Assembly (NCBI GenBank): GCA_943787795.1
Contig: CALSNU010000004.1
Location: 256,001-320,000, forward strand
Reading direction: 5' to 3'
Origin: an uncultured bacterium
GTDB taxonomy: Bacteria > Planctomycetota > UBA1135 > GCA-002686595
DNA length: 64,000 nt
Of the stretch, positions 7,845 through 50,047 are shown in pieces (the stretch's first letter is position 1; every line of letters starts with the position of its first letter). The translations under genes and the position numbers were made by a program. The notes beneath the pieces are model-generated. The model made no database searches. It was given only the letters and a program-made list of their open reading frames with translations, and was not told where the DNA came from.

Positions 7845-9016
7845 CCGCGGGCCCCCATCATGTGCTCCACCATGATCTGGTCGAGCCGCTCGTACCTGAG
7901 CCCCTTCGCGCCGATGCCCTCGGCGTCGACCTCCAGGCCCCGAAGCGCGGCGCCGCGCTCCGCGCTGTAGCCGGCGCCGACGTCCACCAGGTTGGCCGCC
8001 ACGGTTCCAGCAAGGATCTCCCGAACGTCAGGGTCGGCGTCGAATGCGGCCGCTCGGGCAGCGAGGAGCTTGTAGGTGCGCATGCAGCCGCTCGCGAACT
8101 CCCATACGCCGTCGTGGTCCTCGGTCCGGTAGGCGTGAGCATCGAAGTGGCGCGGCCCCTCGTAACGGGCGCCGCCGCCGGTCCCCTCGAGCAGCCGGAC
8201 CAGGAGGAACGCCTGCTTCAGGTCCTCGGACCCGAAGCGGAGGTCCTGGTCGTAGCGGCCGATCCGCTGCCCGTTGAGGTCGATGTGGAAGAGTTTGCCG
8301 CACTCCATGGCTTGACCGACCCCGTGGACGAACGAGAGCCCCGCCATGGTCTCGTGCGCCACCTCCGGGTTGACCCCGACCATCTCGCTGTGGTCGAGGG
8401 TCGAGATGAAGTGGAGCATGTGGCCCGTCGTCGAGAGGTAGATGTCACCCCGCGGCTCGTTGGGCTTGGCCTCGAGGGCGAAGCGCATGTCGTAGCCCTG
8501 GTCCTTCACGTATCCGCAGAGGAAGTCGATCGCGTCGCGGAAGTTCGACAGCGCGGTCCGCGGGTCCCGGCAGGCGTCGGCCTCGGCGCCCTCGCGGCCT
8601 CCCCAGAACACGTACGTGCTGGCCCCGAGCTCGACGCCGAGGTCGATGGCGTCCATGGTCTTACGGATGGCGAAGGCCCGCACCGCCGGGTCGTTCGAGG
8701 TGAACGCGCCGTCCTTGAAGATCGGCTGGCTGAACAGGTTGGTCGTGGCCATGGGGCAGACCACCCCAGAGTCGGCCATCGCCCTCTTGAAGTCCCCCAC
8801 GATCCGGTCACGCTCGGCGGCCGAGCTCCCGAACGGGACGAGGTCCTCGTCGTGAAGGTTCACGCCCCAGGCGCCGATCTCTCCCAGCTTGGCGACGATC
8901 TCGCAGGGGTCGAGAACCGGCCGAACGGCGTGACCGAAGGGGTCGCGGCCGGGGTTGCCCACGGTCCAGAGGCCAAAGGAGAAGCGATCGTCGGGGGTGG
9001 GGTCGAGGGAGCTCAT
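7841..9016 (-). CDS. xylA: Xylose isomerase, class I (short, Streptomyces/Thermus type)
   Basis: FSFGLWTVG, DPFG, WGGREG, EAKPNEPRGDI, VNPEVAH, FHIDLNGQ, YDQDLRFG. Confidence 0.95.
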   Translation of the reverse strand: MSSLDPTPDDRFSFGLWTVGNPGRDPFGHAVRPVLDPCEIVAKLGEIGAWGVNLHDEDLVPFGSSAAERDRIVGDFKRAMADSGVVCPMATTNLFSQPIFKDGAFTSNDPAVRAFAIRKTMDAIDLGVELGASTYVFWGGREGAEADACRDPRTALSNFRDAIDFLCGYVKDQGYDMRFALEAKPNEPRGDIYLSTTGHMLHFISTLDHSEMVGVNPEVAHETMAGLSFVHGVGQAMECGKLFHIDLNGQRIGRYDQDLRFGSEDLKQAFLLVRLLEGTGGGARYEGPRHFDAHAYRTEDHDGVWEFASGCMRTYKLLAARAAAFDADPDVREILAGTVAANLVDVGAGYSAERGAALRGLEVDAEGIGAKGLRYERLDQIMVEHMMGARG

Positions 9017-9098
9017 GGTGGCTCTCGACTCTAAGGGACGGAGCCCGGCCCAGGAACGGTGGCCAGGGAGTCCCCGGCAGCTGAGACCCGGAATAGCA

Positions 9099-9132
9099 AG
9101 GCACCCCGGCGGAGCGAACCGCCGGGGTGCCT
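9099..9132 (-). terminator. Terminator-like hairpin downstream of the UGA-readthrough gene
   Basis: 14-bp perfect stem aggcaccccggcgg / ccgccggggtgcct with a 6-nt loop. Confidence 0.7.
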
Positions 9133-9185
9133 GCGTGACGAGGCGCGACGGGCGCCCGGTGTGGGGCGCGCAGCCGCGAGCGCGA

Positions 9186-9836
9186 TCAGAGGATGTAGGT
9201 CTTGTCCTTCTTGATGCTCTTCATCTTCACCTTGTGCTTGGCGAGGGCAGCCTTGAGCTTGGCCTCGTCGAGCTTCTCGTCCTTCTTCATCTGGATGATG
9301 ATCTCCGGACCGGCGTAGACATCGGCGACGTTGTCCCCGAGGGACTTCATGAGGGTCTCACGGACCCTACCGGCGGTGTCGCTTCATGTCAGGCCGGGCG
9401 TCTTGGCGACGTAGGCCGCCTTCGCCCGCGCCGACTCGCGGCTGGTGAGGGAGACCCACTTGAGGCGCTGCTTCTCGATGGCGGCCTTCAGGGCCTTTTC
9501 GTCCACCTTGACCCCCTTCTTCAGGGTGAAGCTGGCGCGGGTGCCGCTCCAGAAGATGCGTTCGATGTCGTCGTCCTCGTCGAGGACAGTGAGGAAGGCC
9601 GCACGGGCCTTCTTGCCCGCGCTTCAGCCCTTGCCGGAGGCATGGAGGGTCCAGACGGTGATCTTGTCCTCCTTGGCCTCCTTCTTCTTCGTGTCGCCCT
9701 TGACGGCGGGGCCGTCGTCACCCTTCTGGGCGATGGGCTTGGAGGTGGGGCCTTCCTGGTGGGCGGTGACGAGAGCGCTTGAAGCGATCCCGGCCACAGC
9801 CACGAGCAGGGCTCCCTGAACCAGTCTTGTGATCAT
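9186..9836 (-). CDS. Candidate secreted selenoprotein with two HMA-like domains and two Sec (UGA at 9624-9626 and 9384-9386)
   Basis: One frame of 216 codons plus stop, interrupted only by two TGA codons, at GKG-U-SAG and PGLT-U-SDTA; uniform high-GC3 coding bias throughout; a hairpin 3' of each TGA; signal peptide. Confidence 0.8.
9352..9368 (-). promoter_or_regulatory. Putative bacterial SECIS element for the second UGA
   Basis: mRNA AGGGUC-CGUGA-GACCCU, stem starts 15 nt after the UGA; built with codons rare in this gene (GGT AGG, CGT). Confidence 0.6.
9594..9612 (-). promoter_or_regulatory. Putative bacterial SECIS element for the first UGA
   Basis: mRNA GAAGGCC-CGUGC-GGCCUUC, stem starts 11 nt after the UGA; GU-containing loop. 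Confidence 0.65.
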
Positions 9837-10090
9837 GAGATGAGGGTTGCTGAGCGCGGGCCAGGAAGCGGCCCGCTGGTTTGTATTACCCGGTGTTCTT
9901 CGCCGCGGGGCTACCGCGCGGACGAGAGGGTTGTGTGAAAACCTCGCGCGCCTCCGGATGACCCTGGGGAATATGCCCCTACCGCGTCAGGGCGCGGCAT
10001 GCCGAATTAGGGTTTACCCTCATTTATGTGCGGCAGCTTCGCTCTCGAAGAGGGAATTGGCCCGGTTCGCTCCCCATCCGCCAGGTACCC

Positions 10091-12802
10091 ATGACTCACC
10101 GCGACCAATCCCTCCTCCTCTGGTTCTCCGAGGTCGGCAGAGACGACGCCGATCTCGTCGGCGGCAAGGGAGCCTCCCTTGGCGAGCTCTACCGCGAGCT
10201 GGTCCCGCGCGGCGTCCGTGTCCCCAACGGCTTCACGACCACGGCGACGGCGTACCGGCGGTTCCTTGAGGCACCCGTGGACCGGGACGCCTGGCTCGAG
10301 GTGGAGGAGCCCGAAGGGCTGGCCAAGGTCCGCGCGACCGCCGTCCGTTGCGACAGCCTGGACGAGGCGCTCCGCGCGTCCTTCGAGGGCGCAGACGCCA
10401 GCGATCAGCTGGAGATGTACGGTCGAACCGCCCTCGCCCGGCAGCTGGTGGAGGAGACCCCCGTCCCCCAGGACGTGATGGACTCCCTTCGGGAAGCCTA
10501 CCGCGAACTCTGCGACGAGTACGGCGCGGAGGTCGACGTGGCGGTCCGGTCCTCGGCCACGGTCGAGGACTCGGCGGACGCGAGCTTCGCAGGCCAGTGC
10601 GAGAGCTACCTCAACGTCCACGGGTTCGAGGAGGTGCTGCTGCGCTGGAAGGAGTGCTGCGCGAGCCTCTTCACCGAGCGCGCCGTCTCGTATCAGCTCG
10701 CCAAGGAGATGGACCCGCTCGCCGCGTCCCTCGCTGTCGTGGTCATGAAGATGGTCCGAAGTGACCTGGCGACCTCCGGGGTGATGTTCACCCTGGACCC
10801 CGACTCCGGACATCCGGGCGTCATCCACGTCAGCTCGAGCTACGGGCTCGGTGAGCTCGTGGTGCAGGGCTCTGTGTCCCCCGATCAGTTCACCATCTGG
10901 AAGGAGGGCCTGCGCCGCGGATACTCCGCCATCGTGCACCGGCACCTCGGCGCCAAGGACCAGGCCATGGTGTACTCCACCCAGGGGGGTACGCGGACCG
11001 AGAGCAACGACACCTCCAGCGCCAGGCGGCGGCAGTGGTCACTCTCAAGGGAGGAGATCAGCGAGCTCGGCCGCATGGCGCTCGCGATCGAAGAGCACTA
11101 CGGCCAGCCCATGGACATCGAGTGGGCGAAGGACGGGCGAAGCCAGGACCTCTTCATCGTCCAGGCTCGCCCAGAGACCGTTCACTCCAAGGCTCGGCCC
11201 ACCGAGATCGTCCGCTACGCGATGCCGTCGGGCCTCGCCGCTCAGCTCGCGGTGGATGGGAAGGTCCTCGCCGAGGGGCAGGCCGTGGGGACGCGTATCG
11301 GCAGCGGCCGTGTGCGGCTCTACAAGAACTACGAGGAGGTCATCCTGCGCAAGCGGGCTCTTCGGGAGCGGATCGCCGCCGGAGAACGCCTCGACGGCAT
11401 TCCCGCGGAGGAGCGCGTCTTCGACTCAGGCGACGTCCTCGTCACCGAGATGACGACCCCCGACTGGGAGCCGCTCATGAAGGACGCCTCCCTGATCATC
11501 ACCGAGAAGGGCGGGCGCACCTCCCACGCCGCGATCATCGCGCGGGAGTTCGGCATCCCGGCCATCGTCGGCTGCGAGGACGCCACCAAGCGCCTCGCCC
11601 CCCTTCAAGAGGTCACGGGCACCTGCGCCGAGGGCGACATCGCCCTGGTCTTCGATGGCATCCACCCCTTCGAGATCGAGCGGACCGAGGTCGACACGTC
11701 GATCGAGCTCGAGACCAAGATCAAGCTCAACGTCGGGTTCCCCTCCAAGGCGCTCACCGACAGCCGCCTCCCCGTGGACGGCGTCGGACTCGCTCGCCTC
11801 GAGTTCATCCTGACCAGCGAGGTCGGCGTCCACCCGCTCGCCCTCCTCTACCGCCAGGAGCTGCAGGACTTCCTGGAGACCGGCAAGGTCGCCCCCGTCC
11901 TGACACGCTTCCAAGAGCGCCTCGAGGCAGAGGGCTCGGAGGAGCTGCGTGGCATGCTCGGGGCCATCGACCGGCGCACCGCGGCCTACGCGGACAAGCG
12001 CCAGTTCTTCGTGGACCGGGTCATGGAAGGCGTCGGCCTCATCTGCGCCGCCTTCCACCCCCGCCCGGTCCTCGTGCGGCTCTCGGACCTGAAGTCCAAC
12101 GAGTACCGCGAGCTCCTCGGCGGGCGACTCTTCGAGCCTGTCGAGGAGAACCCGATGATCGCCTGGCGAGGCGCGAGCCGGTACGTGGACCCCGACTTCA
12201 CCCCCGCCTTCGAGATGGAGTGCGACGCGCTCCGGCTCGTCAAGCGGCGACTTGGCCTTGAGAACCTCGAGCTCATGGTCCCCTTCTGCCGCTCACCAGA
12301 GGAGGGCGCCGAGGTCAGCGAGCTCCTCGCCGACCGCGGGCTGGGCCCCGAGGCCGACGTGCGCCTGTTCCTGATGATCGAGCTGCCCAGCAACGTCATC
12401 GAGGCGGATCGGTTCATCGACGCCATGGACCTCACGGGCGGCTCGATCGGCTCGAACGACCTGGTTCAGACGGTCTACGCCGTCAGCCGTGACGACCTCG
12501 AGGGGTACCGCCACGCCGTGGACGCCCGCTCCCCCGCGGTCCAGCGCATGATCGCCGACGCGATCACGGCCTACCGCCAAAGGGGGCTGGAGATCGGCAT
12601 CTGCGGCCAGGCCCCGAGCGACCACCCGGACGAGATCCCCGCGTTCCTGGTCCAGTGCGGCATCAGCTCGATCTCCGTCACCCCCGACACCGCTCTGGAC
12701 GTGCGCCTCGCCGTCGCTCAAGCGGAGGCCGACGCGCGGGCGGAAGCCGGAGTCCGCAACGAAACCTCCGCCACGCCGGGGCCCGACACCGACGTGGCCT
12801 GA
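10091..12802 (+). CDS. ppsA: Phosphoenolpyruvate synthase (pyruvate, water dikinase)
   Basis: VGGKGASLGE, AVRSSA..ED...ASFAGQ, DIEWA, GGRTSHAAI (phospho-His), SIGSNDL, GICGQAPSD. Confidence 0.92.
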   Translation: MTHRDQSLLLWFSEVGRDDADLVGGKGASLGELYRELVPRGVRVPNGFTTTATAYRRFLEAPVDRDAWLEVEEPEGLAKVRATAVRCDSLDEALRASFEGADASDQLEMYGRTALARQLVEETPVPQDVMDSLREAYRELCDEYGAEVDVAVRSSATVEDSADASFAGQCESYLNVHGFEEVLLRWKECCASLFTERAVSYQLAKEMDPLAASLAVVVMKMVRSDLATSGVMFTLDPDSGHPGVIHVSSSYGLGELVVQGSVSPDQFTIWKEGLRRGYSAIVHRHLGAKDQAMVYSTQGGTRTESNDTSSARRRQWSLSREEISELGRMALAIEEHYGQPMDIEWAKDGRSQDLFIVQARPETVHSKARPTEIVRYAMPSGLAAQLAVDGKVLAEGQAVGTRIGSGRVRLYKNYEEVILRKRALRERIAAGERLDGIPAEERVFDSGDVLVTEMTTPDWEPLMKDASLIITEKGGRTSHAAIIAREFGIPAIVGCEDATKRLAPLQEVTGTCAEGDIALVFDGIHPFEIERTEVDTSIELETKIKLNVGFPSKALTDSRLPVDGVGLARLEFILTSEVGVHPLALLYRQELQDFLETGKVAPVLTRFQERLEAEGSEELRGMLGAIDRRTAAYADKRQFFVDRVMEGVGLICAAFHPRPVLVRLSDLKSNEYRELLGGRLFEPVEENPMIAWRGASRYVDPDFTPAFEMECDALRLVKRRLGLENLELMVPFCRSPEEGAEVSELLADRGLGPEADVRLFLMIELPSNVIEADRFIDAMDLTGGSIGSNDLVQTVYAVSRDDLEGYRHAVDARSPAVQRMIADAITAYRQRGLEIGICGQAPSDHPDEIPAFLVQCGISSISVTPDTALDVRLAVAQAEADARAEAGVRNETSATPGPDTDVA

Positions 12803-15317: not shown

Positions 15318-17621
15318 ATGACACACCCGACCCGAAGCGCCCCCTCCAGGCTGCGGCGATCCACAGTTCTGCTCCTTGGGCTCACGACGCTCATCACCGG
15401 GTGCGTGGACGTGGACGATCCCCGATCCCAGACCGTCGCCGTCTACAACCCCTCGGCTGGCACCTTCCCGATCCCGAACGACCTGCTCTTCAGCGGCACC
15501 CTCGACGGGACCGTCAACATCCCGCCTGCACTGGACGGGAGCGGGAACCCGCTGCCGATCCCCGAACCCCTCCTGAGCCTCAACACGGTGGACGGCGCCT
15601 CGACGGCGGCCCCCATCCTGATGAACTTCTCGCGGGCCATCGACGACGCGTCGCTGGTCGAGGGCTCCAGCGTCCGGATGTTCCAGGTGACCGCCGAGAC
15701 GGCCTCTGGTCCCGTCGGAGGCGCGGTCACCGCCATCACCAACGAGCTCAGCGCCGCGGATTTCTCCGTCTCGGTGGTCTCTGAGTTCGGGAACACGGCG
15801 ATCCAGATCCAACCCCTCGCGCCGCTCACGCCGAGCACCGCCGGCGGAAGCAGCGTCTACATGGTCGTCCTCACCGACGCCATCCTCGACGCCGACGGTG
15901 TGGGCGTGACGCGAGACGTCACCTACAACCTCGCAGCACAGGCGACTCCCTTCGACCCGGCCACGACCGAGCTCTCACTCGTCGGCCTCCAGGCCCTCGT
16001 CAACGCGCAGCTCGTCGCCTTCAGCTCGACGACCGCCGTCGCCCGCGAGGAGGTCATCTGCTCCTTCACCTTCACGACCGAGTCCATCGGCTCCGGTCTT
16101 GGCTCCGTGATCACCATCGCGAACGGAGGCGAGGCAGCCCTGATCACGGGCCTCTGCGCGGCGTTGGGGACGTGCGGCGGCGACACGGCCCCCAGTCCGT
16201 TCTCGACGCCGCTCGTCAACGTCGCTCCCATCGCTCCGGTGATCGGTTCGGTCGCGGACCTGACCGGCCCCAACCTCACGAGCGGGAACGCCGACATCTA
16301 CGTGGGCAGCTTCCAGGCGCCCTACTACCTGACCGCTGCGGCCAACGCGACCTTCGACCAGGTGACGTTCGACTCGGCACCGCTGACCGCCCCCTGGGCC
16401 ACGCGCTACCCCGCGCCCCTGGAGGCCGCCCTGCCAGCTGCCGAACGCGACAACAACGTCACGCGCTTCAACCCGCTCCCCGTCGCCACCGATGCCGAGA
16501 TCATGCCCGTGCTGCTCTCGGTCCCCGGAGCTGCGGTTGGAGCGCCGCCTGCGGGTGGCTGGCCGATCGTCATGTTCGCCCACGGTATCTATCAAAGCCG
16601 CCTCAACATGCTCCCCCTGGCGGACGCCTTCGCCGACAAGGGCTTCGCGGTCATCTGCATCGACCTCCCGCTCCACGGAGTGAACGCTGCCGCCTTTGGT
16701 CCGACCAACACCAACGGGGGGCTCCTCGCCAACGGAGCGAACATCTTCGTGGGATTCAACGATCAAAGCGGCGGGCCGCGTGAGCGGACCTTCGGGATAG
16801 ACCTCCTGAACAACACGACGGGCGCTCCTGGCCCGGATGGCACCGCTGATACATCGGGTATCCACTACGTGAACCTGGCCAACCTCGCGGTCACCCGCGA
16901 CAACCTCCAGCAGACCGTGGCGGACTTCGCAAGTCTCCGCGCTGCCCTCGGGGGGCTGTCCGTGGCGAACGCCGGAGGCGACGTCTTCGATGAGACCAAG
17001 GTGCACTTCGTGGGACACTCCCTGGGGGCCATCGTCGGCATGCCGTACATCACGCTCGACGACGCCAACCTGACCGCCAGCACCCTGGCCATGGGCGGCG
17101 GCGCGATTCCCTATCTCCTGGAGTCGTCCATCGCCTTTGGACCGACGATCCAGGGCGGCCTCACGGCGGCTGGCGTTCCGCCGGGATCGCCCCAGTACTA
17201 CCAGTTCCTCCAGACGGCACAGACGGTCATCGACACCACGGACGCGATCAACTTCACGGGCTTCGGCGCCACCGGGCCGCTGTTCGCGATGGAGGTCATC
17301 GGCGGCGGACCGCTCGGCGGGCTCACCGATCTCGTGGTCCCCAACCTCGCCGCGGGGAACCCGCTTGGGGGCACGGAGCCGTTCATCACCGAAGCTGGGC
17401 TCGCCTCCGTCAGCGTGACCACCACGGTCCCCGCCGGCCAGCGCGCCGCGGTGCGGTACATCGAGGGGTCGCACAGCTCGGTGCTGGTCCCGGTGATCGA
17501 CGGGCAGAGCCCCGAAGCCAGCAACTCCGCGGCCTGGGTCGAAATGCAGGAGGCGCTGACCGAGTTCCACGCCACCGACGGCGCAACCGTCACCGTCACC
17601 GACCCGGCCCTCGTGCAGTAA
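15318..17621 (+). CDS. Extracellular lipase-like lipoprotein (Pla-1/cef/VolA-like alpha/beta hydrolase)
   Basis: Lipobox LITGC; PIPNDLL, IDLPLHG, RDNLQQ, nucleophile GHSLG, GSHSS. Confidence 0.8.
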   Translation: MTHPTRSAPSRLRRSTVLLLGLTTLITGCVDVDDPRSQTVAVYNPSAGTFPIPNDLLFSGTLDGTVNIPPALDGSGNPLPIPEPLLSLNTVDGASTAAPILMNFSRAIDDASLVEGSSVRMFQVTAETASGPVGGAVTAITNELSAADFSVSVVSEFGNTAIQIQPLAPLTPSTAGGSSVYMVVLTDAILDADGVGVTRDVTYNLAAQATPFDPATTELSLVGLQALVNAQLVAFSSTTAVAREEVICSFTFTTESIGSGLGSVITIANGGEAALITGLCAALGTCGGDTAPSPFSTPLVNVAPIAPVIGSVADLTGPNLTSGNADIYVGSFQAPYYLTAAANATFDQVTFDSAPLTAPWATRYPAPLEAALPAAERDNNVTRFNPLPVATDAEIMPVLLSVPGAAVGAPPAGGWPIVMFAHGIYQSRLNMLPLADAFADKGFAVICIDLPLHGVNAAAFGPTNTNGGLLANGANIFVGFNDQSGGPRERTFGIDLLNNTTGAPGPDGTADTSGIHYVNLANLAVTRDNLQQTVADFASLRAALGGLSVANAGGDVFDETKVHFVGHSLGAIVGMPYITLDDANLTASTLAMGGGAIPYLLESSIAFGPTIQGGLTAAGVPPGSPQYYQFLQTAQTVIDTTDAINFTGFGATGPLFAMEVIGGGPLGGLTDLVVPNLAAGNPLGGTEPFITEAGLASVSVTTTVPAGQRAAVRYIEGSHSSVLVPVIDGQSPEASNSAAWVEMQEALTEFHATDGATVTVTDPALVQ

Positions 17622-48784: not shown

Positions 48785-50047
48785 CGCCCCCCATCACCAC
48801 AAAGTCCCCCTTGCTGCCCGGCCTCGCACTCCTCGCGCTCGCCAGCTGCAGCTCGAGCCCGATCGCCTCGGTGTCTCCCATGGACCCCGACCAGGTCCCG
48901 GCGACGCTCATGGCCGCGCAAGCCTCGACAGCCGACCAGCTGGCAGATGGGCAGCTGGTGGACACCGTCGCGGACCTGCTCTCGGCGAACAAGGCCCGTG
49001 GACTCGACACGCGGACCCGGGTGGAGGTTCGCACCGCGCTCGAGCTCTACGCCCAGGAGCTCGCGGACCGCGGTGAGAACCCGCGAGCCCTCGAGGACCT
49101 CTCGGAGACCGACCTGCCTGCCCGGATCTCCGTGCCGGCTGGGATTCGTTCCGCGACCCTCTACCTCGCCCGTGAGGATCGCAAGGACGCGTTCAAGACG
49201 ATCAAGAAGCTCGACACCCGGTACCCGTCCCACGGTCTCCGTGACGAGGCCGGCGACTTGCTCATGGAGATCGGCAACAGCTACTACTTCGACAAGCGTC
49301 GCAAGTTCTTCCTGTTCCCCTACTCGAGCAACGCGCCGCAGGTCTACGAGTACTTGAGCACGGAGTACCCCAAGCACCCCGAGACCGATGACGCGCTGAA
49401 TCGGCTGGCCGATACCTACGCCAAGAACCGGCAGTACAGCTTCGCCATCGAGAAGCGCGAGAACCTCATCCTCTGGTGCCGGGACTCTCCCTATCGAATT
49501 GCAAGCGAGGCCGCGGTGCCGGAACTCCGTCTCGCCGCGCTCGATGGGCCGGAGTACGACCGAGCCGCCATGTTGATCGCCCTCACGGAGCTGGAGACCT
49601 GGATCTCGAGGTACCCCCGACAACGAGCTGCGCCCTGACGTGGAGAGGACCATGATCGACTGCCTGCAGCGCCTCGCCGATAACGACATGGTCGTCGCCC
49701 GCTTCTACCGCACCGTCCTGAGCGCAACGGGCGCACGCCAGCACGCTGCCCGGGCGCTGGAGTTCGCGAAGCGAGCGGGGAACCCGGAGCAGCTGGAGGA
49801 GATCCGGACGTTCCTCGCAGCCGTCGATGAGATCGAGTCTCTCGGGCCGCCGAGGGAGATCACCCAGGGAGCGGAGTTCGAGGGCATCCTCCCGCTCGGC
49901 GCTGAGTTCGACCAGCTGGGACCCGCCGAGTTGGCGCCCGGCTCCGAGACGCCGGAGGCCGACCGAAGAAAGCGCGACGTCGACCAGAGCGATGAGTCCC
50001 CGCCTGCTCCTGCCTCCAGCTCGGAGAGCAGCGGAGGGACGCTGTGA
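48781..50047 (+). CDS. bamD: BamD-like TPR lipoprotein, +1 frameshift in a C5 run (49614-49618)
   Basis: Lipobox LASC; YP-containing TPR helices; removing one C gives RYPDNELRPDVERTM...LADNDMVVARFY; recO-bamD-lptE synteny. Confidence 0.65.

Follow-up and report, generated by a model that had tools for sequence, protein, structure and literature searches.

A gene of the window, the whole stretch of 64,000 nt analysed here, is almost certainly (about 97%) translated through two in-frame UGA codons as selenocysteine (Sec), each followed by an in-frame SECIS-like hairpin of its own, into an exported two-domain protein of ferredoxin fold. Judged by its sequence, the product is a double selenoprotein that is exported, derives from HMA domains and is missing from the catalogues consulted, the presence of Sec in HMA domains being already known. 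The family was found to be widespread among marine bacteria: around Rubritalea, about three quarters of the sampled Sec-using genomes carry it, and in Planctomycetota it occurs in nine families or more. Coordinates are window positions (Table 1) unless a contig or locus is named, and the genome of the window (G000) comprised 4.7 Mb and was 85% complete.

Table 1. Features of the two-UGA gene and its surroundings, in window positions
Feature	Position	Strand	Basis
Two-Sec exported protein gene (predicted), 216 residues	9186..9836	-	Translation, homologue conservation, mostly synonymous same-genus changes flanking both TGAs
Signal peptide, residues 1 to about 25	9762..9836	-	Sequence read by eye; homologue N-termini
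Lys/Asp-rich variable linker, residues 26-56	9669..9761	-	Poorly conserved among homologues
Domain 1: ferredoxin-like fold, G-x-G-U-S/G-A loop, conserved S-G (sometimes C-G) beta2-beta3 turn	9426..9668	-	Model and alignment
UGA 1 (Sec71)	9624..9626	-	TGA in 29/29, 30/30 and 8/8 protein-found loci
SECIS-like hairpin 1: stem 7 bp, loop CGUGC, 18 nt 3' of UGA 1	9594..9612	-	Folding and homologue comparison
Domain 2: HMA-like fold, G-L-T-U-S-D-T; second HMA Cys position is Thr	9189..9425	-	Structure and profile matches
UGA 2 (Sec151)	9384..9386	-	TGA in 28/29 (1 TGC), 30/30 and 8/8 protein-found loci
SECIS-like hairpin 2: stem 6 bp, loop CGUGA, 21 nt 3' of UGA 2	9352..9368	-	Folding and homologue comparison
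Strong hairpin 3' of the stop	9096..9134	-	Folding; no U run

The frame was found to have no interruptions except the TGA codons 71 and 151, each directly followed by AGC, and to be closed by a TGA stop at 9188-9186, as an earlier note on this DNA had claimed; the peptides quoted there matched the translation exactly. The distance of exactly 80 codons between the two TGAs was also confirmed, but it was no special feature, the spacing being 72-80 codons across the 29 members found in the family of the window. The GC3 of the three segments split by the TGAs was 0.84, 0.94 and 0.92, respectively, in agreement with the uniform coding style noticed before. The two units of about 80 residues were 36% identical over 36 residues (E 3e-6), and the protein contained no Cys and, past the signal peptide, only two His and three Met. 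Two independent contigs covered both TGAs, X1 (8826-9879) with two differences located elsewhere and X2 (9322-9793) with none, so that a base-call error, one of the objections raised beforehand, was excluded. Both contigs came from RNA libraries; X1 spans 29 of 30 bins and may hold DNA, and they are no proof of transcription.

The gene was found to stand alone, flanked by a divergent pyruvate phosphate dikinase (PPDK) gene at 10028-12802 (+) and, on the other side, by xylose isomerase and FGGY sugar kinase genes at 9016-6378 (-). A link to xylose use or to PPDK was rejected, the synteny being confined to close relatives. No sigma-70 promoter was found in a search for one, and no close paralogue was present within the genome. 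The terminator-like hairpin that had been reported after the stop was real (-40.5 kcal/mol for a 61-nt stretch, z -5.9, equalled by none of 200 shuffles), but UAUUCC stands where a U run would be expected, so that it is not a textbook intrinsic terminator. It probably marks the 3' end or acts as a stabiliser, and the termination of one relative's contig at 9096 gave a weak hint of a 3' end there. An opposite-strand open reading frame at 8955-9782 (+) was rejected, as the in-register antisense frame was open in just 16 of the 29 homologues, and weak matches of the protein to OxyR (NF050018) and DUF4875 were also rejected, lying far under the cut-off.

In the family of the window, 29 of the 101 genomes were found to match by protein, and 28 of these contained TGA at both sites whereas one (L026) contained TGA followed by TGC. 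Their final stop was TAG in 16, TGA in 10 and TAA in three. Against two same-genus genomes, 19 synonymous and 5 non-synonymous changes were found between the TGAs, followed by 8 and 1, respectively, past the second TGA; by these counts purifying selection acts downstream of both TGAs, and the conservation did not stop at the first one, as would be expected of a frame ending there. With a 40-row profile, 78 of the 201 genomes of the family around Rubritalea marina matched, of which 72 were full-length at E<=1e-29 and all contained two TGAs (positions verified in 30 fetched loci). Two further matches were split or partial, with TGA, and four weak ones (E 5e-6 to 9e-4), two of them from selA-lacking genomes, were left out and are probably ordinary HMA domains. 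Across 401 genomes of the phylum, 83 matched at E<=0.001 and 12 at E<=1e-29, the latter from nine families and all with two TGAs. The named records carrying the gene were mostly Planctomycetota and Verrucomicrobiota, which suggests that the window is of planctomycete origin; two cultured strains, Rubritalea marina DSM 17716 and Engelhardtia mirabilis Pla133, were among the carriers.

The homologues were thus found to carry TGA pairs (28/29 and 72/72) and Cys in only a few, which answers the check proposed in the earlier note. No full-length genomic match contained TGG in place of either TGA, and 95 of the 96 distinct core members retained both Sec residues. A word-seeded protein search with the mature region recovered none of 834 candidates whereas an exhaustive search gave 36 matches, and loci could not be sought by back-translation of the 29-member alignment because of its variability.

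The genome of the window was found to contain selA, selB, selD and tRNA-Sec (selC, anticodon UCA), completing the set that had been asked for, and its selD carries an in-frame TGA of its own. Its two tRNA-Trp genes read the codon UGG; one of the two, tRNA-Trp(CCA), was located by ARAGORN in the window at 15648-15728 (+). Around Rubritalea the gene was present in 74 of 99 selA-positive genomes and in none of 102 selA-negative ones (201 genomes), a count given without a p-value since related genomes are not independent. In the family of the window, selA was found in 98 of the 101 genomes and a selA match in 28 of the 29 carriers, the single carrier lacking it being a genome that was 83% complete.

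The two SECIS-like hairpins had been absent from the earlier note. The bacterial SECIS model, as quoted in a passage of PMC13188914, places a hairpin 16-37 nt 3' of the UGA with a loop of 3-9 nt, G in the first two places and a stem of 4-16 bp, and both hairpins fitted it in distance, loop and stem. The fixed Arg codon was CGT in 28 of the 29 family members at each site, as against 13 of 185 other Arg codons, and the stem was of at least 4 bp in all 29 members at site 1 and of 6 bp in all 29 at site 2. In 30 verrucomicrobial loci, the loop codon of site 1 was AGT in 17 and GGT in one, with GU maintained. Paired stem changes in these loci were C-G in 25 and U-A in 5, and G-C in 22 and A-U in 8, at site 2, and G-C in 19 and A-U in 9 at site 1, where two were mismatched. 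The best hairpin of each locus was picked here with a GU/GG bonus, which leans toward such a result. By single-sequence folding, the isolated hairpins were not exceptionally stable against shuffles (z -1.2 and -0.6), and the minimum-energy fold of the isolated site-1 stretch was an alternative hairpin beginning 4 nt past the UGA; the 5' arm of this hairpin would presumably be masked by a ribosome at the UGA.

A DNA motif made of the UGA and hairpin 2 was found at 73 loci across the genome collection, 62 of which belonged to this family and nine to a second family with an in-frame UGA, the remaining two looking like chance. Site 1, which lies outside the motif, was TGA in all motif-found members but one cut by a contig end. 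The motif is therefore a sharp search key, 71 of its 73 loci being in-frame-UGA genes of two uncatalogued families.

Among the 36 matches of the exhaustive protein search, 22 were pieces of 54-74 aa lying between or after the TGAs, which bears out the earlier expectation that standard annotation splits or misses the gene. Thirteen database proteins (P0006, P0008, P0014-P0017, P0020-P0023, P0025, P0028 and P0041) were found to contain Trp at both sites, those looked up lying on contigs of 0.7-3.2 kb. Homologues with Trp, which had been named as a possible refutation, therefore exist in databases, but they failed the DNA check: their closest DNA relatives contained TGA at both aligned sites in 12 of the 13 (P0006 against L127, 82% identity), the alignment of P0016 being gapped at site 1. 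Judged from these nearest DNA relatives, the Trp entries very probably arose when gene callers wrongly applied code 4. Databases thus appear to store the family as fragments or with Trp for Sec, and such entries in public protein collections could mislead searches for other selenoproteins. Among DNA-checked members, Sec was exchanged with Cys alone (L026). Cys at both sites was found in four related database proteins (P0002 and P0056-P0058, protein only), and the DNA of this clade was not found in the genomes or metagenomes searched.

That the gene encodes no selenoprotein, being a pseudogene, a sequencing error or a gene with UGA read as Trp, is extremely improbable. The Trp entries and the ordinary stability of the isolated hairpins would fit such a case, but the TGAs in the DNA relatives of the former, the two TGAs in every full-length Rubritalea-family match, the strict co-occurrence with selA and the purifying selection past both TGAs all stand against it. 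TGA is not a general Trp codon here, since it also serves as the final stop in 10 of the 29 family genes.

AlphaFold2, run with the 29 sequences and Cys substituted for Sec, gave a model of pLDDT 95.3 and pTM 0.86 with two beta-alpha-beta-beta-alpha-beta ferredoxin domains, the two folds that the earlier note had proposed to look for. The ten best structural matches were all HMA domains aligned to domain 2 (Z 8-9.8), led by the ZntA N-domain (Z 9.8, rmsd 1.9 over 70), whereas domain 1 matched generic ferredoxin folds (Z up to 8.0) and was found to contain long first and last strands of 10-11 residues. Foldseek with the whole model gave poor full-length matches only (TM<=0.36). Of the 21 PDB sequences matched by the family profile at E<=1, all but one were HMA-domain proteins (20), the best being the B. 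subtilis CopA N-domains (6e-8), and Sec151 aligned to the first Cys of GMTCxxC with Thr at the second. The claim that each TGA occupies the first HMA Cys position was therefore upheld for domain 2, whereas in the model domain 2 appears clearly and domain 1 only loosely HMA-like. The loops contained U-S-A-G in domain 1 and U-S-D-T in domain 2; none of 40 aligned members contained Cys at +3, and 30 of the 40 contained Thr at +3 in domain 2.

With the Pfam HMA model (PF00403, cut-off 24.8 bits), the window protein gave no match and four of the 29 members gave weak ones (best E 0.037), the divergent L104 (31 bits) being the sole one to pass among the core-like members tested. No core member passed any NCBIfam cut-off (29 and 11 scanned, three shared). 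Feature matches in the ESM Atlas (0.80-0.81), taken as leads only, included two of three from HMA clusters of Planctomycetota or Verrucomicrobiota.

Distant planctomycete relatives were found to contain two or three Sec domains, in which a Cys follows as UxxC or UxxxC or is missing. They can be ordered in a series that begins with L181 (UxxC, Pfam HMA 83 bits), continues with L176 (UxxxC, 93 bits) and ends with forms lacking a partner Cys. These tandem-HMA selenoproteins (L165-L182, from other Planctomycetota families) contained three Sec in L166, L173 and L176, a UxxC duplicate in L181 and adjacent UGA-UGA in L171. Extra Sec-free domains were present in L051, L054, L067, L094, L112, L168 and L177, and one genome carried two neighbouring paralogues of the three-domain form, L067 and L068. 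In a tree of 89 domain rows and 73 columns, a short alignment with rough support in which one spurious row (L176_d1) was left, core domains 1 and 2 grouped apart with both phyla in each (94/97 and 87/85) and are thus not interchangeable.

The 96 distinct core members were classed by regular expression for a hydrophobic N-terminus, a lipobox and Cys. A hydrophobic N-terminus was present in 94 and a lipobox in 31, in support of the export signal claimed before. The earlier claim of a protein without any Cys held for the window protein and for the mature core of 64 of the 96 members, but not for 21 members with a beta2-beta3 loop Cys in one domain or in both, nor for the distant UxxC and UxxxC relatives; two members contained Cys at +4. 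The loop Cys occurred in either domain separately. In domain 2 it lay at or beside the column aligned with MerP Phe38, which we take to flank the metal loop, and its domain-1 counterpart lay at the matching position. By this alignment, the loop Cys points to a metal site that may be completed inside each domain rather than between domains.

Across 146 loci, the gene had no functional neighbour that was conserved. Among 129 neighbouring open reading frames (of 166 candidates) scanned with Pfam there was one metal-transport gene, an ArsP-type permease (PF03773) divergent from the gene in one Roseibacillus clade (L059, L092, L126, L132, L134 and L137), and no mer, cop or cus genes; a conserved reductase or Dsb gene was absent, and sel genes never adjoined the gene, in the loci examined. 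P1B-ATPase matches were present in 87 of the 101 family genomes; 6 of the 29 carriers gave none, among them the three that belong to the genus of the window (G000, G051 and G093). In the 85% complete genome of the window MerT was not found and MerA gave nothing above cut-off. The lack of metal-gene linkage, the carriers without P1B-ATPase and the lack of MerT and MerA argue against an obligate role as the chaperone of a pump. The only other HMA match in this genome was an exported single-domain Sec lipoprotein with U-G-A-G-C. Such a lipoprotein gene with an in-frame TGA (G-M-T-U-G-A-G-C) was located at L183:1486-1827 (-) and on C2 of G000 near 109200-109550, and its product was under every NCBIfam cut-off (NF041115 45 of 95 bits).

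The nearest catalogued relative by kind was NF041115 (UxxU_metal_bind, 'putative mercuric reductase' in catalogues), which likewise contains an HMA-like domain, Sec as first ligand and two Sec per protein. It was the most frequent weak match (10 of the 29 members, best 27.5 bits against a cut-off of 95); however, its model spans 74 positions and has a single UxxU that contains both Sec. This motif is absent from the window protein, and in the present family the two Sec lie about 76 residues from each other, one per domain, each served by a separate SECIS. MerP, CopZ, ZntA and domains 1-2 of B. subtilis CopA share the ferredoxin fold and the G-[LM]-T-[CU] loop before helix 1, CopA being alike in its tandem layout and MerP in being periplasmic. 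In contrast to HMA metallochaperones and P1B-ATPase N-domains, the present protein contains Sec for Cys, with the second Cys replaced by Thr in domain 2 or small residues in domain 1, and is neither fused to a transporter nor encoded beside one; the merT/merA or P1B-ATPase association of MerP-type systems was absent among its neighbours. Full-length superposition on tandem CopA was poor (TM 0.34, rmsd 14.7), so the domain arrangement seems to differ. The Sec P1B-ATPase (UxxC), the MerT/CopZ fusion selenoprotein NF045683 and the MerP selenoprotein of the GOS survey also carry Sec at the HMA metal loop, but with a partner Cys or a membrane transporter, unlike the window protein, and NF045683 matched no core member scanned.

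In the portions of the 2026 catalogue PMC13188914 (119 families) consulted, Sec at HMA sites is listed for the UxxU protein, the UxxC P1B-ATPase and a mercuric transport protein, and no row there fits by name, motif and Sec count. A catalogued protein with CU motifs and presumed metal binding, represented by a table row, shares the two Sec, but matched none of the 29 members at E<=1. A row of PMC2398784 lists the MerP selenoprotein, and Table S9 of PMC4807772 contains no HMA-like candidate, one row being only 'hypothetical'. No description of the family was found in the literature covered, including passages of PMC9312934 and bioRxiv 2022.07.06.499078; subscription papers or supplements may list members.

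For the function, we give about even odds to a stand-alone periplasmic or surface binder of soft metal, most likely Cu(I) and perhaps Hg(II) or Ag(I). The protein would descend from HMA domains with UxxC or UxxxC, the second Cys having since been lost; where the compartment is oxidising, a lone Sec cannot be trapped in a disulfide within the motif, and this would account for the switch. In each domain, the metal would be bound mainly by the selenolate that opens helix 1, and a weaker second ligand might be the same-domain Thr at +3, the beta2-beta3 Ser or Cys, or an outside thiol or partner. The protein would act as a buffer or store of metal and would not supply any dedicated transporter. A soft-metal buffer is favoured over a redox role, although all functional steps are ones that we infer. 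Against the metal-binder reading stand the missing second ligand that defines HMA metal sites, the near absence of metal-transport genes among the neighbours scanned, the carriers without P1B-ATPase, the lack of MerT and MerA matches in the genome of the window and the small number of His and Met, and in the part of catalogue PMC13188914 consulted UxxT, UxxS and UxxG motifs belong mostly to redox selenoproteins. It is possible, though clearly less probable, that the HMA fold serves instead as a scaffold for one reactive selenolate per domain, as in a peroxidase-like or thiol-disulfide catalyst recycled by exported thioredoxin-like selenoproteins. With its lone Sec opening a helix and Thr at +3, domain 2 resembles the catalogued UxxT families, the optional loop Cys could serve as resolving thiol, several candidate thioredoxin-like Sec genes (WUGPC, TRUGPC, PWUGWC, ELUSQC) occur in the genome and metal-gene linkage is absent; yet the sequence and fold neighbours are all HMA metal-binding domains, no reductase or Dsb gene is conserved nearby and no helper residues of GPx or Prx type were identified.

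A Se-metal-Se clamp between domains or in a dimer, or a diselenide joining the two Sec, appears quite unlikely. The joint retention of both Sec in nearly all members, the separation of domains 1 and 2 in the tree across both phyla, the pTM of 0.86, which suggests a fixed arrangement, and the many members entirely without Cys would suit it, but relatives with one, two or three Sec domains, some with added Sec-free domains, fit independent sites, the loop Cys occurs in either domain separately, and the long strands of domain 1 would set its Sec loop far from the linker and make contact less easy. A broader version, in which two lone selenolates on a rigid scaffold clamp a soft metal (Hg, Cu, Ag) or cycle a diselenide as an all-selenium exported device with neither thiol nor transporter partner, is somewhat less doubtful but still unlikely. 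If true, few selenoproteins of Planctomycetota and Verrucomicrobiota in the sea would be as common as this one, which would be part of a large unannotated exported selenoproteome that could help explain why aerobic heterotrophs retain the Sec machinery. Very improbable is an abundant small exported store or carrier that holds or passes selenium: the gene is common in Sec users around Rubritalea and stands alone without a partner gene, but there are merely two Sec per 216 residues, Cys versions exist, the Sec-flanking residues are conserved like an active site and sel genes never adjoined it. The protein presents an HMA site minus its second ligand, and the natural intermediates (UxxC, UxxxC, loop Cys and Cys/Cys) make the role of Sec at a metal-binding loop directly testable.

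The second candidate selenoprotein family was represented in the genome on C5 (-) with TGA at 49310, its homologues being L069, L077, L081, L084, L088, L109, L111, L115 and L118. Its members were found to contain a CxxCH heme motif followed after about 25 residues by T-A/S-U with the same SECIS-like hairpin and then about 180 residues; several contained a hydrophobic N-terminus, and no NCBIfam or Pfam family was over cut-off in the members tested. Further candidate in-frame TGA genes of the genome were located at C4 + 789560, C1 + 753692, C1 + 189924, C6 + 70103, C7 + 99960, C8 + 38656, C2 - 620327 and C8 - 5572. Several were thioredoxin-like, the motifs being WUGPC, TRUGPC, PWUGWC, ELUSQC, VPVUPMC and NWUC, and most of their hairpins contained GU in the loop; together they form a candidate, sizeable unannotated selenoproteome.
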